A program made the position numbers and the translations under genes. The notes below the pieces were generated by a model. The model had not been told where the DNA came from. It worked only from the letters and a program-made list of their open reading frames with translations, and made no database searches. From NCBI GenBank assembly GCA_035480235.1, contig DATIHX010000009.1:3857-67856 (forward strand): 64,000 nucleotides of DNA, written 5' to 3'. Source of the stretch: Candidatus Saccharimonadales bacterium. Lineage in GTDB: Bacteria; Patescibacteriota; UBA1384; 2-12-FULL-50-11. Shown here piece after piece: positions 3,689 through 61,530 of this stretch. The number at the start of each line of letters is the position of its first letter. Position 1 is the stretch's first letter.

Positions 3689-4846
3689 TTAATTCCCGAG
3701 GGTGCCGAGGGTAAGTTTCACCGTTTGGCTGGTTTTGTTGCGAAGAATCGTCAGTGTTATTTGCTCGCCGGGGTCGTGAGAACGGATAATTTTTGACAGC
3801 GGATTGCTCTGGGTAACGGCGTCCGAATTCACTTTCGTTATCACATCGTTCACCTGCAAGCCGGCGGCTTGGGCCGGCGCGCCAGTGACCGCTTTAATCA
3901 GGGCGCCGTCAGTGACCGTCAAACCGAGCGTGCTCGCTAAGGTCGCTGTCAACGGCTCGTACTGAACACCGATAAAGGCCCGCAAAATTTTGCCGTTTTT
4001 GGTGTAAGAAGCTAGGGATTTTTGAATTTCGTTAGACGGCGTAACGAAGCCTAGGCTCTGGGCGGAAGCAGCAATGGCGGTATTGATACCGATCACTTGG
4101 CCGCCGAGCGTTAATAACGGCCCGCCAGAGTTACCAGGGTTAATAGCGGCGTCGGTTTGGATTAAATTATCTAGCGATTCGGTGGCGCCGGTCGCTTCAT
4201 CGGCCGGGCTGGCTTGGCGGTTAAGCCCAGAAATTACCCCAACAGTCACCGTATTTTGGTACTGGCCAAGAGCGTTGCCGATCGCCACCACCCACTGGCC
4301 AACTTGGACGTCGTCGGAATTACCAAAGTCCACCACTGGCAAACCGTGGGCCGTAATTTTTAGCAGGGCAAAATCGATGACGGGGTCGGTCGCGGCCACC
4401 GTGGCGTCGTAGGTCTTGCCGTCGCTGGTGGTCACTTTGAAGCCGGCGTTGCCGGTAACGACGTGTTTGTTGGTGGCGATCAAACCGTCACTGGTGACGA
4501 TAAAACCACTACCGGCCACTTTTGACGGCTGGCTGCTCAAACCGTTGATCGAGAAAAGATTAGTTTGAGCCTGGCCGGTGGCTGTAATACTGACAACCGA
4601 CGGCGAGACGTTTTTGGCCGTATCAATAACCTGCGACGATTCTTGAACGTTAATCGTCTGGTTTTTGTTAGTAGAAATGGTGAAGGTTTTGAAGTTGTTC
4701 AGGCCAAGCCGCGTGCGGAGCGCCTCACCGCTGGGGGTCGCCGAAAGAAAATACAAAACCGCCAACGTGGCAATCGCCCCTACAATAAAAACCACGAGCA
4801 ACGTCGCAACATAAGCCGGCCAGCGTTTTTTCCAGTCCCAATTCAT
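3689..4846 (-). CDS. htrA: HtrA/DegP-family serine protease with C-terminal PDZ domain and N-terminal TM anchor
   Basis: Catalytic-Ser motif GNSGGPL, a His region (TNKHVV) and a PDZ-like C-terminus. Confidence 0.9.
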   Translation of the reverse strand: MNWDWKKRWPAYVATLLVVFIVGAIATLAVLYFLSATPSGEALRTRLGLNNFKTFTISTNKNQTINVQESSQVIDTAKNVSPSVVSITATGQAQTNLFSINGLSSQPSKVAGSGFIVTSDGLIATNKHVVTGNAGFKVTTSDGKTYDATVAATDPVIDFALLKITAHGLPVVDFGNSDDVQVGQWVVAIGNALGQYQNTVTVGVISGLNRQASPADEATGATESLDNLIQTDAAINPGNSGGPLLTLGGQVIGINTAIAASAQSLGFVTPSNEIQKSLASYTKNGKILRAFIGVQYEPLTATLASTLGLTVTDGALIKAVTGAPAQAAGLQVNDVITKVNSDAVTQSNPLSKIIRSHDPGEQITLTILRNKTSQTVKLTLGTLGN

Positions 4847-24473: not shown

Positions 24474-25289
24474 TTATGATTTCTGAATGTTTTTTCCCAC
24501 TTCTTGCGAGAGCTGCTGCCACTGCCGAAATGATAAATCGGCCGGCCGAGCGAGTGGGTTAAGTTTGAGTTCGGTAAATATAGCTTGAATCTCGGTTCGG
24601 CTCACCGGCAGGTCTTTCAGGCCGTTCATTAGGGTTTGGCGAGCGTGGCGGAAGCCAGCTTCGACAACTGGCCAGAAAACCGATTCCAGTTTTGATTCTT
24701 TGAAGGGCGTCACCTCGATCACCGCCGACTCCACTTTGGGCATCGGCCGGAAACTGCCCGGCGCCACTTTACGAATAATTTTAATATCGGCATTGGCTTC
24801 GCTTAAAACGGTCATAAAACCGCGATCGCGGTCGCCGGGTTTAGCGGTCAGCCGCTCGGCCAGCTCCTTTTGAACCAACAAAATAACTGTTTTTGGTTTT
24901 TTGGCCAAGTGGTAAATTTTTTGTAACAGCGGCGAGGTGATTGAGTACGGGATATTGGCGACGATTTTATAGCCGGCTGAGATTTCCAGCGTCCAATCCA
25001 CCCGTAACGCGTCGCCGGTCACCACCGTTAATTTAGGAATATGTTTTTCACGTAAATAGTCAGCTAATTCGCGATCGGCTTCAACAGCAATCACGCGCTT
25101 AACTTTTTCCAGGAGTGCAAATGTGAGTACACCCAACCCTGGCCCGATCTCCACGACCGTCTCCTCGCTTTCCAGCTTGGCCGCCGCCACGATGTCTGTC
25201 AAGGCTTTTTCGTCCACCAAAAAGTTCTGCCCAAATTTTTTATCGGGAAATTTCTGCAGGTCTTTGAGGATTTCGACGGGCTTCATCAT
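24474..25289 (-). CDS. rsmA: 16S rRNA (adenine1518/1519-N6)-dimethyltransferase
   Basis: FGQNFLVD...VVEIGPGLGVLT...ANIPYSITSP. The start could be the second ATG at 25286. Confidence 0.9.
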   Translation of the reverse strand: MMKPVEILKDLQKFPDKKFGQNFLVDEKALTDIVAAAKLESEETVVEIGPGLGVLTFALLEKVKRVIAVEADRELADYLREKHIPKLTVVTGDALRVDWTLEISAGYKIVANIPYSITSPLLQKIYHLAKKPKTVILLVQKELAERLTAKPGDRDRGFMTVLSEANADIKIIRKVAPGSFRPMPKVESAVIEVTPFKESKLESVFWPVVEAGFRHARQTLMNGLKDLPVSRTEIQAIFTELKLNPLARPADLSFRQWQQLSQEVGKNIQKS

Positions 25290-25330
25290 TACATTTTACT
25301 CTAATATCAGCTTCAGAGCTGCCGTTCTTA

Positions 25331-25579
25331 GTTAGGGTGAGGGGGCTTAGTTGCGAGGCAGCCCCCTACACCCTAACAACCCCGGCGGCTCGCTCGCCGC
25401 TTGGCAAAAGTTAGGGAAAAATTATAACTTTTGCAGCGGCTTCCGTTCGAAAGCTCCAAGCATTCGCTTTCTCACCCCCGCACGCTTCCTTTGCAGGGCA
25501 GTGGTGCAAGCTGATGGCTGTCAACCGGCAACTGGCACTGTTTCCTCCATCAGCTTGAGGAACTATTGGTAGGGCGGCA
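25331..25579 (+). ncRNA. structured-RNA-like element, copy 1 (unknown family; strand tentative)
   Basis: Nested helices GTTAGGGTG/CACCCTAAC and GGGGGCT/AGCCCCC, plus helix AAGCTGATGG/CCATCAGCTT. Paralogous to 34762-34918 with compensatory changes. Confidence 0.45.
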
Positions 25580-25583
25580 GGGC

Positions 25584-26573
25584 TTACGCCCAGGGCCAGC
25601 GTGAGCTGTAGCCCTTATGTATTGCGCAGGCTGTTACTTTAATCTGGGTCGGGCCGTCGTTCCAGGCGGCGCCAGGGAAGCCGCACATCGCCGAGGCCTG
25701 AGCCCAAAAGCTCGTCGTATATTGGAATAAGCCGTAATAAGTGCCGCCACCGCCAACCGAACCAGCGTGGCCGTTACTTTCAATAATTAAGCCTTTACAG
25801 AGTAAATTAGGGTCGACGTTGTTGGCGATCGCCGCCGATAAAACGGTGTTGTCGTACCCAGCGCAGGGCACGGTAATGACCGGTTTGGTACCGATTAAGT
25901 CGACTTCACTAATCGGCGCGGTGGTAACGCTCTGGCTCTGTAAAACGTGCGAAACCGTCACGCCATCTTTGCGGGTATCGCGGTAAACGCTGGTCAACAC
26001 GCCGTTTTTGCCCGGCGTTTTAACTTTAGTCAGGCCCTTGTTAAGCGTCGGGTCGTCTTGTTTAACGACGTTAAAGGCAACGGGGCTGGTTTGGGTCACC
26101 GACGTCACTGCCACCCGAACAATGGTAATTGTTTGTTTTGGGTGAAGCGTGGAAGCCAGAGCCGGCGAAATTTCGTCTTGGTCGCCGAGCGTAATATTTT
26201 GCTCTTTTAATAAACCGTCAACCGTCGCCGCCCAAGTGAAAGCGGCGTAGGGTTTAGTGCCGTCAACAATCGTCAGCGGCAGCGCTTGGGTATCAAATAT
26301 CACTCCGCCTAGGCCATCTTGGATATTGGCCGGAAAAACCTGGATCTGGTCTTGCGGGTGATAAGCAATGCCGGCTTGGGCAAAAGCGGCCACAACGGTG
26401 GTCGCACGACTGTCAAAGTGGAAGCTAACCACGGGATGGTAAGGGTTAACGCTCGTATTAGTACCGGCAAAGATTGGAGCGATCTTCTGGCCACCGGTAA
26501 GCAAAAAAACCAGGCCGGTGGCAAGTAAAATGGCCCCTCCGATAATCTTGTAGGCCAGACGAACGCGAAACAT
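25584..26573 (-). CDS. cell-wall lytic protein: N-terminal TM, G5-like region and transglycosylase-like C-terminal domain
   Basis: The C-terminus IIESNGHAGSVGGGGTYYGLFQYTTSFWAQ...QIKVTACAI resembles the ES..G...YGLfQ...W transglycosylase-like signature. The middle part is G5/DUF348-like. Confidence 0.7.
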   Translation of the reverse strand: MFRVRLAYKIIGGAILLATGLVFLLTGGQKIAPIFAGTNTSVNPYHPVVSFHFDSRATTVVAAFAQAGIAYHPQDQIQVFPANIQDGLGGVIFDTQALPLTIVDGTKPYAAFTWAATVDGLLKEQNITLGDQDEISPALASTLHPKQTITIVRVAVTSVTQTSPVAFNVVKQDDPTLNKGLTKVKTPGKNGVLTSVYRDTRKDGVTVSHVLQSQSVTTAPISEVDLIGTKPVITVPCAGYDNTVLSAAIANNVDPNLLCKGLIIESNGHAGSVGGGGTYYGLFQYTTSFWAQASAMCGFPGAAWNDGPTQIKVTACAIHKGYSSRWPWA

Positions 26574-26913: not shown

Positions 26914-26938
26914 CCGCTCAATCGAGCGGGGATTTTTT
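26914..26938 (+). terminator. intrinsic terminator
   Basis: CCGCTC aatc GAGCGG gga TTTTTT. Confidence 0.65.
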
Positions 26939-29906
26939 AAATTCGGTCGAGCAGACTTTCGTCGAGTTCGGCCAGGAAGCGGCTGGGCAGCGTTGAGGTT
27001 AAGCCGCCGTGAATGATCCGCTGGCGGGCGTGCGTCAGGTACAAGCGTTTGCGGGCCCGGGTCATGCCCACATAACAAAGCCGGCGCTCTTCGTCCATCT
27101 CGCTTTGGTCTTCCAGCGCTCGCAGGTGCGGGAACAGGCCCTCTTCCATCCCGGTCAAAAAGACGGTCGTAAATTCCAGGCCTTTGGCGGCGTGCATGCT
27201 CATCATCGTCACCGCGTCAGCCGAGCCGTCGTAGTTATCGACGTCCGAAACTAAGGCGACGTGTTCTAAAAAATCTTCCAGATTTTCAAACTCGAAGGCC
27301 AAGTTTTTTAATTCTTCGACGTTCTCCCAACGAGCCTCGCCCTCGGGCGTGCCGTCGTTCACATAGTCCTGATATTTGATCGTTTTCAAAAGCGTCTCTA
27401 TAACCACTTGCGGCGTACTTTCGGCGACCATCGCTCTTAATGTCGCCATCTCGTTCAAAAAAGCCTGGACTTTTTCGCCGCCAGTGGCGAGCGTTTTTGG
27501 CCCGATCCCGCGGGTTGGCACGTTAATAATTCGGGCCAGCGAATGGGTATCGCTCTGGTTCAGCAAAAAGCGCAGATAGGCCAAGATGTCTTTGACTTCT
27601 TTCCGTTCATAGAAGCGCAGGGCACCGATCAGCCGGTACGGCACGCCTTCGTTTAAGAAGATTTCCTCGATCACCCGCGACTGGGCATTGGTCCGGTACA
27701 AGACCGCGAACTCGCCCCAATTTTTGCCCATGTTGTGGAGAACCCTGGCTTCTTCAGCGATAAAATCCGCTTCGCCGTAAGCGTTGTGAGCCTCGAAAAC
27801 GGTGATCGGCGGCCCTTCTTCGTTATCGGTCCAGAGTTTTTTGTCGGACTTCCTTTTGATCCGGTCAACAATTTGATTAGCGCCCTTAAGGATGGTTTTG
27901 GTCGAGCGGTAATTCTGCTCCAGTTTAATAACGGTCGTGCCGGGAAAATCCCGGGCGAAATTGAGGATATTTTTGAAATTGGCCCCGCGCCAGCCGTAAA
28001 TAGAGTTGTGCACTACAATGCCATTTGCAATAAGGGTGTTGCTTTCAACTACGTCAATATCATAAACGAGTCCCTCGTATTGCTCAAAAACCACTTCAGC
28101 AATTTCAGCGGTGACAACTTTCCCGTCCTCAACTATCGGCACAAGCATACCTGGGCGTAAATGAGCAGCCGGTTGCCAGGGGAAGTTTCTATCTTCCTTG
28201 GTTAGTCGGGCCGCTCGGTGTAAATCGACTTCGCCAGCTTTGCTCAGCTCTTCCGCTAAAGTGTAAGCGTCCGCAAAGTGCTTGCGCGATGTTTCCACAC
28301 GACGACTCTTTTTATCAGCCCGGGTTTCGATACCAGCGTTCGATAACCGCTCCAATAAGGCGGTGTTGCTTGTAGTCAAGCGGACACGGTGAGCATGCCA
28401 AGGCAACTTTGTTTCGACACGGCTATCGCCGAATTGGATTAAATAAGCTTGAGCCCGACCAGGGTAAAGGTTAGACAGTTCAGTTGTCACCGCCTGTGGT
28501 CGAAAATGTGGGTACTCGGAAAATAAAAGATAATCAGCCATTAAATTCTCCGCATTGGTGGTCGTATCGATTTCTTTATAAATCTGATCAATGTGTTTCT
28601 GGGTAAATGTCAGTCCGTCTCGACCCAGCGAAAAGAATAGTACTTTGGGGATCTGGTATTTGAGTGAGAGAAGCTCCTCCTGGTAACGGGCTTCAACTAA
28701 ACTACTCGTGACGACGATAATCCACATTTTATCGGCTCGTTCTTGATTCGCCCTAGCAAGTAAACCGTTTATTTCGCCTTTACCGGGGTTACGAATACCC
28801 CGCGTTATTCCCAATCGATAGCCCTTATCAGCCCGGAACATCAGGTAAACGTACCACTGACCTTCTTTCGGCTGGAGACGGGCGAAACAAATATGTTCCG
28901 GTGTCATCGTAACCGAGCGGCCGGATTTTGTTCTAATCTGTACGACACTGCCCTTATATTTCGTGGTTCTTACTTCGTTGACAGAGAATTGCTGCGTTTC
29001 TCCAAAACCACTGGCAGCCACAATCTTGGTGCCTTTTTTCACTTTTTCAATCGGCAATTCTTTTTCTAGAGTCAGGACTTTAGTATTAGGTAATAGGCAC
29101 TGGTAATCGTCGCCGACGACGCATAAATTCTTGGCGGTTGGGTTCATCAGCGCCAATGTCAGCCGGTACTGGGCGTGGTTGGTGTCTTGATACTCGTCGA
29201 CCATCACGTATTTGAAGAGTTTGTTGTACTTGGCTTTGATCGCTGGGTTGTTCTCGAGCATCCGAACTGTTTCACCGATTAAGTCGTCAAAATCCAGCGC
29301 CGAGAGTTTTTTTAGCTCTTTCTCGTAATTTTTGAACACGTCGACAGCGATCGTTTGAAAGTGGCCGTCGGCGTAGGTTTCGTACTGGGCCGCCGTTTGC
29401 AGCTCGTTTTTGGCGTTGGAGATAATGCTGCGAATCGCCTGGGGGCTGTATTGTTTCGGGTCGAGGTTTTTGTCCTTGAGGGCTTGTTTGATCACCAAGA
29501 GTGAGTCGTCGGAATCAAAAATGGTGAAGCTCCGGCTCAGGCCGATATTTTCGGCTTCAGCGCGGAGCAACCGGACGCAAATGCTGTGAAAGGTGCCGAC
29601 CCAAGGCAACCGGCGACGCATCACTAAATTCGGGTTTTTGGCCCAGGCGCTTTCGTCGTGACCGAGGATTTTTAATATCCGGTGGCCGAGTTCCTGGGCG
29701 GCTTTATTAGTGAACGTCACCATCAAGATTTCATCGAGCTCGGCTTTGTGTTCGGCCACGATATAGGCCATACGGTGGGTCAGGCACTTGGTTTTGCCGG
29801 AGCCGGCCCCGGCCAAGATTAAAACCGGCCCTTCGGTCGCCCGGACCGCTTCCTGCTGCGGCTCGTTCAAATCCGTAAAAATGTCGGTGGTTTTTGTCTC
29901 ACTCAT
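26937..29906 (-). CDS. pcrA: UvrD/PcrA-family DNA helicase interrupted by an intein
   Basis: Walker A GAGSGKTK, DEYQDT, motif III split as VGDDYQ | intein | SIYGWRGA, and later helicase motifs (VTMMSMHAAKGLEF, LCYVGMTRAR). Start trimmed to the ATG at 29906. Confidence 0.9.
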   Translation of the reverse strand: MSETKTTDIFTDLNEPQQEAVRATEGPVLILAGAGSGKTKCLTHRMAYIVAEHKAELDEILMVTFTNKAAQELGHRILKILGHDESAWAKNPNLVMRRRLPWVGTFHSICVRLLRAEAENIGLSRSFTIFDSDDSLLVIKQALKDKNLDPKQYSPQAIRSIISNAKNELQTAAQYETYADGHFQTIAVDVFKNYEKELKKLSALDFDDLIGETVRMLENNPAIKAKYNKLFKYVMVDEYQDTNHAQYRLTLALMNPTAKNLCVVGDDYQCLLPNTKVLTLEKELPIEKVKKGTKIVAASGFGETQQFSVNEVRTTKYKGSVVQIRTKSGRSVTMTPEHICFARLQPKEGQWYVYLMFRADKGYRLGITRGIRNPGKGEINGLLARANQERADKMWIIVVTSSLVEARYQEELLSLKYQIPKVLFFSLGRDGLTFTQKHIDQIYKEIDTTTNAENLMADYLLFSEYPHFRPQAVTTELSNLYPGRAQAYLIQFGDSRVETKLPWHAHRVRLTTSNTALLERLSNAGIETRADKKSRRVETSRKHFADAYTLAEELSKAGEVDLHRAARLTKEDRNFPWQPAAHLRPGMLVPIVEDGKVVTAEIAEVVFEQYEGLVYDIDVVESNTLIANGIVVHNSIYGWRGANFKNILNFARDFPGTTVIKLEQNYRSTKTILKGANQIVDRIKRKSDKKLWTDNEEGPPITVFEAHNAYGEADFIAEEARVLHNMGKNWGEFAVLYRTNAQSRVIEEIFLNEGVPYRLIGALRFYERKEVKDILAYLRFLLNQSDTHSLARIINVPTRGIGPKTLATGGEKVQAFLNEMATLRAMVAESTPQVVIETLLKTIKYQDYVNDGTPEGEARWENVEELKNLAFEFENLEDFLEHVALVSDVDNYDGSADAVTMMSMHAAKGLEFTTVFLTGMEEGLFPHLRALEDQSEMDEERRLCYVGMTRARKRLYLTHARQRIIHGGLTSTLPSRFLAELDESLLDRI
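28005..29099 (-). mobile_element. intein (365 codons) in helicase motif III
   Basis: Starts with Cys (CLLPNTKVLT), has block B TPEH, and ends ...NGIVVHN followed by extein Ser. Removing it restores VGDDYQSIYGWRGA. Confidence 0.85.
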
Positions 29907-29937
29907 GCGCTCATCAGCATAGCGGAAGTACGGAGTA

Positions 29938-29963
29938 GAAAAAAGCCGCGGATATACCGCGGC
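29938..29963 (-). terminator. intrinsic terminator separating the 724-aa gene from pcrA
   Basis: Minus strand: GCCGCGG tatat CCGCGGC TTTTTTC. Confidence 0.7.
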
Positions 29964-29970
29964 GGGTTCG

Positions 29971-32145
29971 TTAGTTGGCCTTAGCTGAGGCAACTCCCAA
30001 CTTGAAAACCAAGCTACTCATATTGCTATCTCCCAGGTCGAGATACCGTCGGGCTGCCCGAATTATGGCCGCATCTCCGGTTAGGAAGATGGCCCACTCG
30101 AGCCAGGCTTTGGCTTCCATATCGGCTTGATGGGCAAGGAGCCACCGCTTGAAATCTGCCACGCCTTTGTGGAACTCAAGCCAGTCAAACCAGAATTGCC
30201 GCTGGACATCGTAATTGTGGCGCAGAACGCCACGCAACTTAGCCAGCGCTTGGAGGAACATCCTTACCTGGTCCGCTTCGCTGTAGCCGTACTTTGCAAC
30301 GAACCGAGCCTTCGCTTCGTCCGAATGACCCTTACTCTCTTTATGGTAATCGATGAGACTCTCCTCGATCCAGTTTTCGGCAAACCATGCATCCACCTTT
30401 TTCCGCCATCGAGAATTGAGCCATTGTTTCGGCCTGTCAGCCGAGCTAACTAACTTAATAACGACGTCCTGAGCATGAGCGTATCTTTCTCGAGAATGGT
30501 TAATAGCCCAAGCGATTTCCAGTAATGCAGCTCGCACTTCGGCATCTCGATCGAATCGGGACATGAGATGCTCTTGGAGCCAGGCCAATTTGCCTTCATA
30601 GCCTCCTTCGGGCTGATAGAAGAGCGCTGAAACCACTACATCTTTGACGGCGACGCCGCAATCAAGGAGTGTATCCCGCCAGTGAGCGTCAGCCCAAAAG
30701 GCAGCCGATTCTGGCAGCGCTTCCCTTCCAGCGTAGTGGGATTGATAGGGCAAGATTGCCCGAACCACATTTTCGCTTTGGAGATCGGCCCTTACTAGCT
30801 GATAACCGGCCTTATAACAGGCTTCGGCATGATCTTCATTTGCGCTCAGGAGAGCACCTGGTTGAATGCCCCAAGGAATAACAAACTCCTTTACGAGCTT
30901 TTCCAGGCGATAAGCCAAATAACGCTCTTTCGGAGCTACGTAGCTGGCAATCCAACGACGCAAAACGGCCTTAGCCGCCTCCTCGTCGGGTTGGTCAGCC
31001 AGCCAGTCCGCCAGCTGACCAGCGTCAAGCTTATCGGCTACCGGATCAATCGAACCGGCGAGCTGGCGCCGACTCTCCTCCGGCAACTCGCTGTAGAAGC
31101 AATCCCAATCCCCGCTTTCAACGGCTAGCCGTCTCAGATACGGTGCAGCGATCCCGAAGGGCAGCTGCATAAGGACGTCGTAGAGCCGGGGAGCGCGATC
31201 TTCCGGAGCGCCTTTGTGGAGCGGATGCTCCTTATTGTTATGGGCAGCGAACCAACCCTCCAAGTTGGTCGTTAGCCCAGGGCTAATCGCTAGCTCCGGC
31301 AGCAACTCGTTTGCCAGCCGCCACGCGTAGTGGCTGTTGATACCAGCGAGCTCGGCGCGCTCAGCCGAGCTGAGCTCGCCGATGAACCGCTTCACAACCT
31401 TAACTGCATACCTTGAGACGTAGTCGTTTCGGTAGCTCGAGCCTTCTTTGATCACTGGCTCGCCCCGCAACGCCCCAACTAGTTCCGGCCAGAGACCACG
31501 GGGCAAGGCCCCGAGAAGAGTCGTGGGCGTCCTATCCTTTGAATGATCGACGGACTCGTCAAAGATCCAGCAGAATAAGTGTTGTCGCAAGTCTGGCAAA
31601 TGAGCCAGCTCCGGTAGCCCAACAGTTTCATTGACCAGACTTGCCAGGTTATCATCCCTCGGTTGGTAGACCCAGCGACAGGCCTGGTAGAATTCGACGT
31701 CGTTGTCGGCGGGTCGGTGGGTATACCGTCGCCCCAATCTACAGGCGGTGGCAATTTCCTCCCAGCTGACTTGCCCGTTTCCGGTAATCCGCGCCCAGAC
31801 CTGGTGCGCCGAGGTTGGGACCAGCGAAAGGTTGCGGACGAGGAACTTGTCGATGAAAGATTGCCGATTGGCGGCCGAATGGTTGGCTGCGTACAGCAAG
31901 CTTGTCAGCACCAGCGGATCGGTCTCCCGAGCCTGAAGATGCTCACGAGCTACGCGAAACAGTGGCGAGTCAGGATTCAGGGCGTTACTGGCCAAACTCT
32001 CGACTGCCAGCCGTGAGTTCCAGGTGCGCTCATCTTCGAGCAGGAACTTTAGGCCTAAGTTTCGAGTGCGATTATCGAGTTTGGCTCGGAAATCGAGACG
32101 ATGCATCAGGGTTTTACCCCATTCAGATAGATTAGCAGTGTTCAT
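29971..32145 (-). CDS. large orphan protein (724 aa), Trp-rich and helical-looking, no recognised motif
   Basis: AGGAGGAAGT RBS before the ATG at 32145. Uninterrupted 2.2-kb ORF with its own terminator. No signal peptide, TM helix or Walker motif seen. Confidence 0.8.
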   Translation of the reverse strand: MNTANLSEWGKTLMHRLDFRAKLDNRTRNLGLKFLLEDERTWNSRLAVESLASNALNPDSPLFRVAREHLQARETDPLVLTSLLYAANHSAANRQSFIDKFLVRNLSLVPTSAHQVWARITGNGQVSWEEIATACRLGRRYTHRPADNDVEFYQACRWVYQPRDDNLASLVNETVGLPELAHLPDLRQHLFCWIFDESVDHSKDRTPTTLLGALPRGLWPELVGALRGEPVIKEGSSYRNDYVSRYAVKVVKRFIGELSSAERAELAGINSHYAWRLANELLPELAISPGLTTNLEGWFAAHNNKEHPLHKGAPEDRAPRLYDVLMQLPFGIAAPYLRRLAVESGDWDCFYSELPEESRRQLAGSIDPVADKLDAGQLADWLADQPDEEAAKAVLRRWIASYVAPKERYLAYRLEKLVKEFVIPWGIQPGALLSANEDHAEACYKAGYQLVRADLQSENVVRAILPYQSHYAGREALPESAAFWADAHWRDTLLDCGVAVKDVVVSALFYQPEGGYEGKLAWLQEHLMSRFDRDAEVRAALLEIAWAINHSRERYAHAQDVVIKLVSSADRPKQWLNSRWRKKVDAWFAENWIEESLIDYHKESKGHSDEAKARFVAKYGYSEADQVRMFLQALAKLRGVLRHNYDVQRQFWFDWLEFHKGVADFKRWLLAHQADMEAKAWLEWAIFLTGDAAIIRAARRYLDLGDSNMSSLVFKLGVASAKAN

Positions 32146-32486: not shown

Positions 32487-32918
32487 ATGGAATGGCTGTC
32501 GCTGGCGGTGTTTACTTCGGTTGGTTACGGCTTGTACAACTTTTTCATTAAAGCGGCCTCAGACAAAATTAACCCACTACTAGCGACGTTTTACCTCACC
32601 TTGACCGCCGCGATTGTCAGCGGCATTGCTTTACTAGTTTTGCGGTCGCTCAACTTACTACCAGCCGTTCACTCTACCCGCAGCGGCGTGGCTTTGGTGA
32701 TCGCCGCCGGGGTTGCTACCGGCGTGGCCGATTTGTTGTATTTTATTATGTTTGCGCGCGGCCAAAGCTTGAACGTTGGCTTGCCATTCGCGCTCGGCCT
32801 AGCGACGGTTTTGGCAATTACGTTGTCAATGATTTTTCTACACGAGACGCTGACTATTACCAAAACGCTCGGAATTATTATTACTCTCGTCGGCATCGTC
32901 ATCTTGGCTAAGTATTAA
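32487..32918 (+). CDS. half-size EamA/DMT-like membrane protein (143 aa)
   Basis: Single EamA-like repeat with about 5 TM helices. TGgTAAGAT extended -10 lies 6 nt upstream of the ATG. Confidence 0.7.
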   Translation: MEWLSLAVFTSVGYGLYNFFIKAASDKINPLLATFYLTLTAAIVSGIALLVLRSLNLLPAVHSTRSGVALVIAAGVATGVADLLYFIMFARGQSLNVGLPFALGLATVLAITLSMIFLHETLTITKTLGIIITLVGIVILAKY

Positions 32919-33318: not shown

Positions 33319-33373
33319 AGCTACTTCGTCGCGACCTTTTGTTTCCGTTCGACGTCGAAGAAACGGGCTTGCT
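33319..33373. repeat. dnaB 3' terminus (direct repeat B)
   Basis: Partner of 32413-32467. Confidence 0.85.
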
Positions 33374-34685
33374 CGGCGCGGAAGTGCAGCTCCACTTCGC
33401 CGATCGGGCCGTTCCGGTGTTTCCGAATCAAAATATCGGTCATGCCTTTGCGCTCGGTGTCGCGCTCGTAGTAATCTTCGCGGTAAATAAACATCACCAC
33501 GTCGGCGTCTTGCTCGATGGAACCAGAGTCACGCAAATCCGAGAGTTGCGGCGTTTTTTTGTCGCGGCTTTCGACGGCCCGAGAGAGCTGCGCCAGGGCC
33601 AGCACGGGGACATCCAATTCACGGGCCAGCGCCTTCAAATTCCGGGAGATCTCCGAGACCTCTTGAACCCGGTTGTTGTCGCCGTAACCGCCGCTCATGC
33701 CGCCGCTAATGAGCTGTAAATAATCGACGACGATTAAACCGAGATTGTGATCGGCCTTCAGTCGTCTGGCTCGGGTGCGGATATCAAGTGTGGTCAGCAT
33801 CGGCGAATCGTCGATAAAAATCGGCGCCTCGGCCAACGTTCCCATCGCCATACCGATCGCCGGGAAATCGTCTTCGCTGAGGTTGCCGGTGCGCAGTTTC
33901 CAGCCGTCCACCATCGCTTGGGCGCAGATCAACCGGTCGACCAACTGCTCTTTGCTTTGCTCCAGCGAAAAGAAACCAACCGGTGTCTTGCCTTTGACGG
34001 CCGCGTTCAAAGCCATGTTTAAGGCCAGGGCGGTTTTTCCCATAGAGGGTCTGGCCGCCAGAATAATTAAGTCGGAGTTCTGAAAACCGGAGAGCTTGTG
34101 GTCGAGATCGCGGAAACCGGTAGTGACGCCGCGTAAAATCCCTTTTTCGCGGTGGAGCTGGTCGATCCGGTCGAAGCTCGAAGCCAGAATGTCGGAGATC
34201 GGCATGAAGTTGTCTTTCACCTGGGCGTGCGAGACTTCAAAGATCGCTTTTTCGGCTTGGTCCAGCACTTCGGCGACCTCGCGGTCTTCTTCGTAACCGA
34301 GTTGGCTGATTTTTTGGCCGGCCGTTAAGATTCGCCGCAAGACCGCTTTTTGGTGGACGATCTCGGCGTAGTGGGCGACGTGAATGGCGGTTGGTACCGA
34401 GTTGACCAGTTCGGCCAGGTAGGCGGCGCCGCCAACGCCGTCGAGCTGCTTGACCCCTTCCAGCTCGTTAGTCAGTGTTACTAAATCGATCGGCGCCCGT
34501 TTGTCGTAGAGGCGCAAGACCGCCCGGTAAATCGTTTGGTGATCGGTCCGGTAAAAATCGACATCGGTAATAATGTCGGCGATTTTGTCCATCGCGTCTT
34601 TGCTGGTTAAGACCGCGCCGAGCACCGCCGCTTCGGCCTCGATATTCTGCGGCGGGATTTTGCCGAGTAATTGTTCTTTGGCCAT
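33321..34685 (-). CDS. dnaB: replicative DNA helicase
   Basis: Walker A ARPSMGKTA, IVVDYLQL and the RecA-like core, with a DnaB N-terminal domain (PQNIEAEAAVLGAVL). Confidence 0.95.
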   Translation of the reverse strand: MAKEQLLGKIPPQNIEAEAAVLGAVLTSKDAMDKIADIITDVDFYRTDHQTIYRAVLRLYDKRAPIDLVTLTNELEGVKQLDGVGGAAYLAELVNSVPTAIHVAHYAEIVHQKAVLRRILTAGQKISQLGYEEDREVAEVLDQAEKAIFEVSHAQVKDNFMPISDILASSFDRIDQLHREKGILRGVTTGFRDLDHKLSGFQNSDLIILAARPSMGKTALALNMALNAAVKGKTPVGFFSLEQSKEQLVDRLICAQAMVDGWKLRTGNLSEDDFPAIGMAMGTLAEAPIFIDDSPMLTTLDIRTRARRLKADHNLGLIVVDYLQLISGGMSGGYGDNNRVQEVSEISRNLKALARELDVPVLALAQLSRAVESRDKKTPQLSDLRDSGSIEQDADVVMFIYREDYYERDTERKGMTDILIRKHRNGPIGEVELHFRAEQARFFDVERKQKVATK

Positions 34686-34761
34686 CGTCTTTTAAGTACT
34701 ACGGTTTTTTGAAGAATTTTCAATGACTACTATATGCGGCTAGCGCCGCAGCTCTCTTTTC

Positions 34762-34918
34762 CCAGAGGATAAGGGGCCTACTTGCGAAGCGGCCCCCTAC
34801 CCTCTGGACTCCCACCCCTGCACGCTTCCCTTCGGGGAGAGGAGGAAACGGATGGCTGGAAACCGGAAACTGTCACGGTATCCTCCATCGGTTTCAGGAA
34901 ACTATTTTATTGGCGGCA
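34762..34918 (+). ncRNA. structured-RNA-like element, copy 2 (unknown family; strand tentative)
   Basis: Helices CCAGAGG/CCTCTGG, GGGGCC/GGCCCC, TTCCC ttcg GGGAG and AAACGGATGG/CCATCGGTTT. Candidate promoter TTGAAG-16 nt-TATATG at 34709-34736. Confidence 0.45.
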
Positions 34919-34934
34919 ACAAGAAGAAAACCTC

Positions 34935-34963
34935 TTGACTTTTCAGGGTTAACATGTTAAAGT
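34935..34963 (+). promoter_or_regulatory. sigma70-like promoter with extended -10
   Basis: TTGACT, 17 nt (ending in TGT), TAAAGT. Confidence 0.55.
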
Positions 34964-34991
34964 TAGCCCAACAATCCCCAAGGAGAGTTGA

Positions 34992-35342
34992 ATGTACCGA
35001 ACCTTAAGTATTGCCGCGATAGTTTCGTTAATCACCATCTTTTTTTGTCTCCTGGTCGTTATCGGATGTGAGCCGGAGCAAAATCACCAATCGTCCACTC
35101 CGCCAGCATCGGCGATGGCTGTAGGCAAACTGGTGAAAATCGTACCAATCCAAACGTCCTGGAACGAGTCCCAGCGAAGCCAGGTCGTCACCGACAAAGC
35201 AACGTATATTGTCATTGGCTACCCCAGCGGCGGGCTTTCAACAGAGGTAAAACTCGAAAAAGGACCAGATGCACTAGAGCCTTACTATCTCTGGATTGAG
35301 CAGCCGGACGGCGAGTTCCGAAGATACACTTCCAGCGGCTAA
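34992..35342 (+). CDS. small lipoprotein (116 aa)
   Basis: AAGGAGAG RBS. Signal peptide with lipobox LVVIGC. Confidence 0.65.
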   Translation: MYRTLSIAAIVSLITIFFCLLVVIGCEPEQNHQSSTPPASAMAVGKLVKIVPIQTSWNESQRSQVVTDKATYIVIGYPSGGLSTEVKLEKGPDALEPYYLWIEQPDGEFRRYTSSG

Positions 35343-35352
35343 ATAGCCGTGG

Positions 35353-35379
35353 CCACATCTCAAAGTGATGTGGTTTTTT
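35353..35379 (+). terminator. intrinsic terminator (overlaps the dnaX stop)
   Basis: CCACATC tcaaagt GATGTGG TTTTTT. Confidence 0.65.
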
Positions 35380-61456: not shown

Positions 61457-61530
61457 CGGTCTCAGCGGGAGTCGAACCCGCGATCTCTTGGATGAGAACC
61501 AAGTGTCCTAGGCCACTAGACGATGAGACC
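61457..61530 (-). tRNA. tRNA-Glu (anticodon CUC), no encoded CCA
   Basis: Manual cloverleaf: GGTCTCA tc GTCT agtggccta GGAC a CTTGG ttCTCat CCAAG agatc GCGGG ttcgact CCCGC TGAGACC g. The D-arm UCGUCUAGUGGCCUAGGACAC matches the tRNA-Glu pattern. Confidence 0.9.

Follow-up and report, generated by a model that had tools for sequence, protein, structure and literature searches.

Two intergenic segments of a Candidatus Saccharimonadales MAG are paralogous copies of an undescribed multi-copy, modular non-coding family of CPR bacteria (Patescibacteria). The stretch of DNA that was analysed, hereafter called the window, is 64 kb long and carries two copies of the element, at approximately 25309-25583 and 34736-34918. 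The family occurs at least in Saccharimonadales and in Berkelbacteria-like lineages, and the fold of its core is kept by selection on one strand, the minus strand of the window. The pattern of pairing and conservation suggests that the element probably works as an RNA. The reading we prefer, to which we give about an even chance, is that of a REP/BIME-like dispersed modular element with an RNA-level core and terminator-like flanks. The general kind, a covarying multi-copy intergenic element, is known; this particular family appears to be new, as do its architecture and its range within CPR.

Anatomy of the two window copies

The initial annotation had proposed a paralogous structured non-coding element. 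This is borne out by the BLAST comparison of copy 1 with copy 2 (E = 4e-15), by a 39-nt degenerate pattern for the second module, which matched both sites and nothing else in the window (0 of 100 shuffles had a match), and by a covariance model, whose search of the 64-kb window without filters returned these two copies only. The features of the two copies and their flanking genes are as follows.

Copy 1
24474-25289, minus: ksgA/rsmA
25309..25322, minus: distal GC-rich hairpin CAGCU-CUGA-AGCUG, from sequence reading
25331..25377, minus: long two-part hairpin with outer helix GUUAGGGUG/CACCCUAAC; covariance model 54 bits, covariation
25331-25339/25369-25377: arms of this outer helix in plus-strand letters, GTTAGGGTG/CACCCTAAC, from sequence reading
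Within the long hairpin, minus: inner helix GGGGGCU/AGCCCCC and 12-nt loop GCCUCGCAACUA
25378..25472, minus: insert of 95 nt with three further hairpins, copy 1 only
25473..25489, minus: conserved single-stranded motif GGAAGCGUGCGGGGGUG (family consensus AGCGUGC-R-GGG)
25476-25489: single-stranded stretch in plus-strand letters, CCCNGCACGCTTCC
25488..25497, minus: small hairpin CCU-GCAA-AGG
25508..25556, minus: long hairpin of the 5' module, AAGCUGAUGG...CCAUCAGCUU, apical CAGUUGCCGGUU
25508-25517/25547-25556: arms of the 10-bp helix
25557..25583, minus: conserved 5' tail, CUGCCGCC...CAAUAG box, adjoining the G5/DUF348 stop codon
25584-26573, minus: G5/DUF348 gene

Copy 2
33321-34685, minus: dnaB
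34736..34749, minus: distal GC-rich hairpin GCGGC-GCUA-GCCGC
34761..34807, minus: long two-part hairpin, continuous pairing; covariance model 83 bits
34762-34768/34800-34806: outer helix CCAGAGG/CCTCTGG; inner helix GGGGCC/GGCCCC
34813..34829, minus: conserved single-stranded motif GGAAGCGUGCAGGGGUG
34816-34829: the single-stranded stretch CCCNGCACGCTTCC in plus-strand letters
34828..34837, minus: small hairpin CCC-CGAA-GGG
34846..34894, minus: long hairpin of the 5' module, AAACCGAUGG...CCAUCCGUUU, one C.C mismatch, apical CAGUUUCCGGUU
34846-34855/34885-34894: arms of the 10-bp helix
34895..34918, minus: conserved 5' tail, UUGCCGCC...AAUAAAAUAG box
34992-35342, plus: ORF of 116 aa

All the features that had been read by eye (helices, loops, single-stranded stretch, small hairpin, GGCGGCA tail and insert) were found at the coordinates above, the outer and inner helices and the 12-nt loops of both copies being as described from sequence reading. 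The 10-bp helix is likewise present in both copies, in copy 2 with one internal mismatch, which reads G.G in plus-strand and C.C in minus-strand letters. Both segments are real, but the element proved larger than first reported and modular: each copy has an additional GC-rich hairpin on its gene-proximal side (25309-25322 and 34736-34749), outside the initial span. At its other end copy 1 reaches the stop codon (25584-25586) of the upstream G5/DUF348 gene, and the homology with a relative (L012) upstream of dnaB restarts just beyond the distal hairpin of copy 2. The insert of copy 1, taken at first for a variable expansion of a structured RNA, is present and hairpin-rich as claimed. However, it has a homologue in none of the fetched loci and contains a degenerate second motif, GAGCGAGCCGCCGGGG, adjoining the long hairpin (aligned to the motif columns of the covariance model); its sequence suggests a partial element, nested or in tandem, rather than a variable RNA domain, and copy 1 is in this sense a composite. 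GC skew near the window copies shows no switch, i.e., no signal of a replication origin or terminus.

In the sense of the window minus strand, the unit measures approximately 180-270 nt, holds 4-5 hairpins and is built as follows: (i) an AT-rich box (TAATAA, AATAG or TATAAT) that stands before the 5' hairpin in most copies; (ii) a long hairpin between an A-tract and a U-tract, with at least five subtypes that have conserved internal or apical sequences, the 5' hairpin of the window copies resembling the subtype with the loop AGCGAYCCUUCCGG; (iii) a small hairpin with a covarying stem (CCC/GGG, CUC/GAG, CGCC/GGCG, CACC/GGUG or CGC/GCG); (iv) the single-stranded stretch (U/A)AGCGUGC(R)GGG(G)U(R)GG(G)AG; (v) a two-part hairpin of 16-18 bp with the 12-nt loop GCYUCGCAAYUA, whose inner helix GGGGCY/RGCCCC is conserved and whose outer helix varies strongly; and (vi) an A-rich linker followed by one or two GC-rich hairpins with covarying stems and, frequently, a GCA loop. 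A counterpart of the distal GC-rich hairpin of copy 1, likewise with a covarying stem, comes after the long hairpin in most members of the family. The small hairpin, the single-stranded AGCGUGC(R)GGG and the two-part hairpin with its GCYUCGCAAYUA loop make up the core. Conservation within the element is highest in the loop and in the unpaired motif, AGCGUGC being invariant in 42 pattern-selected sequences and slightly variable in distant copies found by the model only. The 5' hairpin subtypes lie directly 5' of a core on the same strand in 16/17, 4/4 and 3/3 cases and are therefore part of the unit; this linkage rules out that the 5' hairpin is an unrelated host terminator.

The flanking modules resemble transcription terminators. 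In most metagenomic copies the 5' hairpin has the form of an intrinsic terminator (GC-rich hairpin and U-tract), TTTT stands just 5' of the small hairpin in 31/57 copies, and the distal GC hairpins are followed by A-runs in the sense direction and by U-tracts in the antisense direction. A terminator scan of the minus strand of the window copies called none; long A/U tracts are absent there, the tracts being short. In most copies a terminator-like hairpin stands just upstream of the core in the sense direction, an observation that counts against the preferred reading.

Family range, covariation and strand

The conserved parts of the element were revealed by a partial copy in the dnaX-dnaB gap of a relative (L013), which guided the design of a pattern composed of the inner helix, the loop and GCACGCT. 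Scanning metagenomes with this exact pattern yielded 54 loci, compared to approximately 0.3 expected by chance (our estimate, from 24 specified bases), the sampling of loci being biased in that the pattern demanded the core. A covariance model of the core, applied to the window and to metagenomes as the initial annotation had suggested, recovered 57 distinct copies at E < 1e-5, 13 of which had not been caught by the pattern. The element-bearing contigs are CPR, from Saccharimonadales and Berkelbacteria-like genomes: the window and its DnaB relatives belong to Saccharimonadales, and in the one locus checked for the AT-rich subgroup (L028) DnaK is nearest to proteins of Candidatus Berkelbacteria. 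Copy density is modest, at about 1 per 30-60 kb. The core pattern had 0 matches in a collection of viral contigs. A scan of reference genomes with CAGTTNCCGGTTN{20,50}GGAAGCGTGC, a pattern too specific to the 5' hairpin of the window copies, gave 7 matches, about the number expected by chance; the two inspected (L005 and L007) fall within coding sequence and are chance-like.

The claim that the element matches no known RNA family held for the window and for 18 related loci when these were compared with Rfam 15. At E values up to 10, both window regions gave only spurious matches of 12-20 bits; 12 related loci gave tRNAs only, and 6 more, searched at E up to 1, gave only spurious hits of terminator type. 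The sole Rfam 15 family above its gathering threshold in the window is a tRNA at 61457-61530. In the full-text literature searched, we found no paper linking CPR with REP or MITE elements.

Compensatory changes, initially noted between two sequences, hold across 57 homologues. In the model alignment, 91% of the cells are standard-paired, compared to 71% in shuffles and to 45-58% when the partners are slid by 1-3 columns; this alignment is fitted to the covariance model and its pairing is therefore somewhat inflated, although complementarity is plain in the raw sequences. Both sides vary in 17 of the 19 modelled pairs, and 0 of 500 shuffles matched any of the observed measures. The covariance-model alignment was used because unanchored MAFFT/RNAalifold misaligned the 3' arm. 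The outer helix exists in 39 variants among the 57 copies, with at least 8 of its 9 pairs formed in 46/57. The copies of L013 and L072, which lie in the same gap and in the same orientation, are set apart in their outer helices by four pair-preserving double changes, and their small hairpins, which differ too, are both still paired. These data demonstrate that the core fold is maintained by selection.

Further pairings and a coding function were considered; the pairings found no support and the coding function was rejected. A helix CUCUC/GGGAG that would close off the small hairpin and the motif is only 50-75% paired and shows no clear covariation. A pseudoknot between the 12-nt loop and AGCGUGC was examined by eye; both partners are nearly invariant and their rare variants do not covary. 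Protein coding does not fit copy lengths that vary by 2 nt, a frame through the loop that varies, or changes in both arms of the helices. Open frames traverse the core on the plus strand in single copies.

Several comparisons bear on the strand. Folding of copy 2 gave z = -4.55 for the minus strand and -2.20 for the plus strand, and where its long hairpin has 3 G.U pairs in minus-strand reading, the plus strand has A.C mismatches (-37.5 kcal/mol for the minus versus -27.1 kcal/mol for the plus strand). The covariance model scored 83 (copy 2) and 54 (copy 1) bits on the minus strand, versus 12 and 17 on the plus strand. Among 40 distinct sequences of the long hairpin, the minus-sense strand was the more stable in 29 and the other strand in 10. 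Across the family, the modelled pairs of the long hairpin include 58 G.U versus 13 A.C cells, an asymmetry that favours the minus strand. Judged from these signatures, the functional strand is the minus strand of the window. The 5' hairpin and the distal GC hairpins have no significant strand bias, and for the 5' hairpin such symmetry is what a two-way terminator needs. The differing strand behaviour of the modules favours an RNA over one strand of DNA, but not decisively. Taken together, the conserved loop, the unpaired stretch and the strand-specific wobbles argue that what is read is a folded single strand of the element, not its DNA duplex.

Gene context, turnover and alternative readings

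The element is independent of its neighbouring genes. Neighbour proteins of about 45 unique copies share no common family and do not cluster, and the flanking genes occur in all four classes of orientation (roughly 10 convergent, 9 co-directional, 8 opposite and 5 divergent). In the window, each copy precedes a housekeeping gene encoded on its own strand, ksgA (24474-25289) in one case and dnaB (33321-34685) in the other, as would be expected of a cis-regulatory 5' leader, i.e., a riboswitch or a protein-binding attenuator, that controls these two genes. The gene context of the family contradicts such a leader, which we hold to be extremely improbable. Downstream genes across the family are unrelated and antisense to the element in about 24 of 40 loci (~60%). 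Within the dnaX-dnaB gap itself, the element is sense to dnaB in the window and antisense in L013 and L072. Most close relatives have short gaps and no element: the dnaX-dnaB gap is free of it, and 2-54 bp long, in L071 (DnaB 90% identical), L011, L015 and L016, and the G5-ksgA gap measures 22-36 bp in L011, L015 and L016 versus 294 bp in the window. Finally, the element is separated from the ATG of both ksgA and dnaB by promoter-like -10 boxes, which are also found in relatives without the element; standing upstream of these boxes, the element is therefore not a leader or riboswitch.

The distribution of the copies is that of a repeat. Several contigs carry at least two copies in mixed orientation, and head-to-head (inverted) doublets occur in six loci, the halves of the L023 doublet forming a near-perfect long palindrome. 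L060 and L064 share one unit in the same place, to which L064 adds a second unit, head-to-head and with another 5' hairpin subtype; the opposite orientations in these two loci might have indicated an inversion switch, which we reject, as the shared unit keeps its orientation and L064 merely has the extra unit. The L027 doublet brackets an ORF of 160 aa between murD and mraY; this ORF was considered as a transposase and discarded, having no Pfam match and no homologue in the other loci. Eight copies, from Hainich groundwater and one JGI data set, contain an identical 62-nt motif-plus-hairpin block and vary in their 5' hairpin subtype, small hairpin and distal hairpins, which indicates module exchange or gene conversion. 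With gain and loss among relatives, either orientation and doublets, the element is therefore as much REP/BIME-like as RNA-gene-like. No mobilising enzyme was found beside the copies, and no terminal inverted repeat or target-site duplication, the filled and empty sites that were compared being too diverged to give boundaries.

According to the preferred reading of a REP/BIME-like element with an RNA-level core, a conserved trans-acting factor would recognise the conserved loop and the single-stranded motif in a folded single strand, which would most likely be RNA. The hairpins flanked by A- and U-tracts would act as transcription terminators or insulators in most copies, and less so in the window copies with their short tracts. 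The units may spread by a transposition-like or recombination process that uses functions encoded elsewhere. For selfish repeats it is unusual that motif and loop stay nearly invariant between two deeply separated CPR lineages; a cellular RNA function fits this better.

The same strong covariation, strand-specific G.U pairs and single-stranded parts that are invariant across Saccharimonadales and Berkelbacteria-like genomes would also be produced by independently transcribed, trans-acting structured sRNA genes on the minus strand, which would start at the AT-rich box and whose AGCGUGC(R)GGG and 12-nt loop would bind a conserved protein or RNA partner, their scatter reflecting duplication and loss of small genes. 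In most copies the AT-rich box precedes the 5' hairpin by 6-10 nt, in about one third it has the form TAnnnT, and copies in the same gap stay paired through compensatory changes. Nevertheless, we consider sRNA genes unlikely, if still a serious candidate: there is no conserved -35 element and no terminator in the sense direction after the core, where A-runs follow the distal hairpins; the putative start and the core are separated by a terminator-like hairpin with a U-tract; the 5' ends of head-to-head copies are only about 13 nt apart, which leaves little space for two promoters; and module shuffling and presence or absence among close relatives are more typical of repeats. A bolder version of the RNA function, in which the core would be a new functional RNA class of Saccharimonadales- and Berkelbacteria-like CPR carried on a self-spreading, terminator-insulated cassette, is in our estimation doubtful; such a core could serve as the platform to which a conserved CPR protein binds, or it could be a small fold akin to a ribozyme.

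Two further readings appear improbable. The copies might be ordinary punctuation, namely intrinsic and partly two-way terminators or 3'-end stabilisers of their neighbours, alike by convergence or local duplication. The A- and U-tracts of the 5' hairpin, the antisense U-tracts of the distal GC hairpins, the terminator-type character of all sub-threshold Rfam matches in the loci and the dozen or so copies that begin right behind the stop codon of a same-strand gene are in line with it. However, plain terminators need neither an invariant 11-nt single-stranded motif nor an invariant 12-nt loop, the fixed order of four modules in two CPR lineages is left unexplained, many copies lie in divergent or antisense contexts with nothing to terminate, and the window copies lack U-tracts; we give this reading little credence. 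Equally low in our estimate is a PATE-, MITE- or REPIN-like non-autonomous element derived from a transposon that recognises single-stranded DNA hairpins, e.g., IS200/IS605 Y1 or REP/RAYT, in which the hairpin and its 5' motif would be the DNA recognition site of the enzyme and not an RNA. A strand-specific hairpin that tolerates G.T pairs with a conserved motif 5' of it, inverted doublets resembling REPINs, one doublet flanking a cargo ORF, and copies present or absent between relatives would all be expected of such a derivative. Yet no transposase gene, including those for Y1-transposase and TnpB, was found beside about 45 unique copies, and the initial statement that no transposase, reverse transcriptase or Cas gene adjoins the copies was upheld. 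Orientation is mixed within single 10-kb stretches, unlike the strand-biased insertions of IS200/605, and no constant GTAG/GGAG tetranucleotide stands at a fixed offset 5' of the hairpin, where the flanks read GGGGUAGGGAG, GGGGGUGGAG, GGGUAAGGAAU and so on. Module-specific strand preferences fit RNA folding better than one DNA strand, and we know of no related IS with its own transposase.

CPR genomes measure about 1 Mb and leave very short gaps between genes; in close relatives the two gaps that hold the element in the window are just 2-50 bp long. An element of 180-270 nt present in tens of copies, with folds kept by compensatory change in two lineages and in such tight genomes, is therefore unlikely to be neutral. 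It represents a new candidate structured-RNA/repeat family for a group with almost no described non-coding elements, and its covariance model can be used to annotate such regions in metagenome-assembled CPR genomes. With it, the spread of repeats or RNA modules through minimal genomes, and the tolerance of such genomes towards them, can be put to the test; if the core were a new RNA class, the cassette would constitute a new route by which an RNA useful to the host spreads through a minimal genome. Cultivable, genetically tractable Saccharibacteria exist (PMC10633639), and if these strains carry the element, expression and deletion tests are possible.

Comparison with known systems

Class C group II introns insert just behind intrinsic terminators. 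The core of the element similarly lies right after a terminator-like hairpin, and its motif includes GUGCG, the sequence with which group II introns start by consensus. However, the core is of approximately 90 nt, without domain V or VI and without an intron-encoded protein; GUGCG is found in about half of the copies and GUGCA in the rest, compared to GUGYG at the 5' end of group II introns; and there was no match to Rfam intron models and no reverse transcriptase near the copies. Integron attC sites are marked by R''/R' boxes (RYYYAAC/GTTRRRY) and a neighbouring intI gene. In the element, GTT...AAC ends occur in one subgroup only, the others starting with GTG, GCA or GCG, and the copies are dispersed among housekeeping genes in both orientations, unlike attC cassette arrays, which have a single orientation.

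Correia elements of Neisseria and other MITEs are small non-autonomous elements with regulatory side-effects (reviewed in PMC3184786). Like them, the element is small, ORF-less and intergenic, occurs in either orientation, is present or absent between strains and can provide terminators, promoters or processing hairpins. In contrast to them, no terminal inverted repeats or target-site duplication were identified, no such repeat being visible between the 5' box and the distal end of the element, and purifying selection clearly acts on its internal structure. Orphan multi-copy structured RNA motifs are known from comparative genomics (PMC5737381, PMC2864571). Like these, the element has covarying helices that surround invariant unpaired nucleotides, is present several times per genome, and has neither an obvious association with genes nor an assigned function. 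It differs from them in being absent from Rfam 15, in its restriction to CPR lineages so far, and in its repeat-like turnover, module shuffling and terminator-like flanks, which most orphan RNA motifs do not have.

The REP/BIME/REPIN repeats of Proteobacteria are, like the element, dispersed, intergenic, multi-copy, imperfect palindromes kept by compensatory change, which occur in both orientations, as inverted doublets and as mosaics of modules, and often at gene ends, where they are potential terminators or RNA-stabilising hairpins. The two have no sequence similarity, and no RAYT (Y1 transposase) gene was found among the genes adjacent to the copies. The REP/RAYT palindrome measures 20-40 nt with a 5' GTAG/GGAG, whereas the hairpin of the element measures approximately 47 nt with a 12-nt loop, and the whole unit, at ~180-270 nt and with 4-5 hairpins, far exceeds a REP in length. 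There are tens of copies of the element per genome, compared to hundreds of REP/BIME/REPIN sequences. Unlike these repeats, the element combines a large loop with a single-stranded motif, both of them conserved, and while REP/BIME/REPIN repeats are species-specific, it is conserved over two CPR lineages.

Flanking boxes and the tails of the window copies

The two copies of the element in the window lie beside ksgA (copy 1) and dnaB (copy 2), each of which has a -10-like box close to its start codon:

Window 25290-25308: -10-like box TAAAAT, about 7-12 nt 5' of the ksgA start codon
Window 34686-34735: -10-like box TAGTAC, about 7-12 nt 5' of the dnaB start codon

Both boxes are kept in relatives (loci L011-L016 and L072). 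Because these conserved boxes stand just ~7-12 nt from the ksgA and dnaB start codons, their position suggests that leaders are very short or absent in the lineage of the window. The gap between dnaX and dnaB is a hotspot of variation (window 34686-35377; L012 9237-10000; L073 694-1734). In the window it contains a 116-aa ORF with no Pfam match; L012 has a 184-aa ORF resembling sigma-70 region 4 / RNA polymerase alpha CTD there, L073 has a dihydroorotate dehydrogenase/Dus-like gene, and in other relatives the gap is empty.

Each window copy has a conserved 5' tail. In copy 2 (window 34867-34955, minus strand), the tail reads in frame as ...LPPIK*, closing a 17-codon ORF, MLTLKSQEVFFLLPPIK. In copy 1 (window 25563-25586, minus strand), it reads as ...ALPPYQ*, in frame immediately past the TAA codon that terminates the G5/DUF348 gene. 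The tail may derive from the 3' end of a gene, retained as a relic that travels with the element.

Genes between the copies and a possible cargo cassette

Two further genes of the window are as follows:

Window 26937-29993, minus strand: UvrD/PcrA-type helicase with an intein (Pfam Intein_splicing, residues 328-663)
Window 29971-32145, minus strand: 724-aa ORF, between the helicase gene and an EamA-family transporter gene (32487-32918)

According to Pfam, the intein separates the N-terminal UvrD domain from the C-terminal one; the helicase orthologues of relatives are 621-649 aa long and carry no intein. The 724-aa ORF, which had zero Pfam matches, shares 23 nt with the helicase ORF.

At the metagenomic locus L027 (5012-5860), an inverted pair of element copies flanks a 160-aa ORF, the whole block being inserted between murD and mraY. 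This ORF had no Pfam match and no homologue among the other loci, and the doublet with its ORF may constitute a cargo cassette. At a second metagenomic locus, L025, a (TTAGCTG)n tandem heptamer array (~4580-4660) lies directly upstream of one element copy.

Possible alternative folds and look-alikes of the core

On the sense strand, the single-stranded motif and the long hairpin's 5' arm together supply four G-tracts (window 34773-34829, minus strand), also present in family members such as the metagenomic locus L058 (2866-2954; GGGG-UA-GGG-AGUGUGA-GGG-UGUA-GGGG). The complementary strand is rich in C and poor in G. These tracts fit a G-quadruplex pattern, and the predicted quadruplex would compete with the hairpin.

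In a plus-strand reading, the inner helix with its loop (window 34773-34796; GGGGCU-UAGUUGCGAAGC-AGCCCC) may resemble the helix 43 hairpin of 23S rRNA (GGCUUAGAAGCAGCC), in the GTPase-associated centre. This likeness falls on the strand disfavoured by the wobble pairs of the element, and Rfam gave no LSU match.
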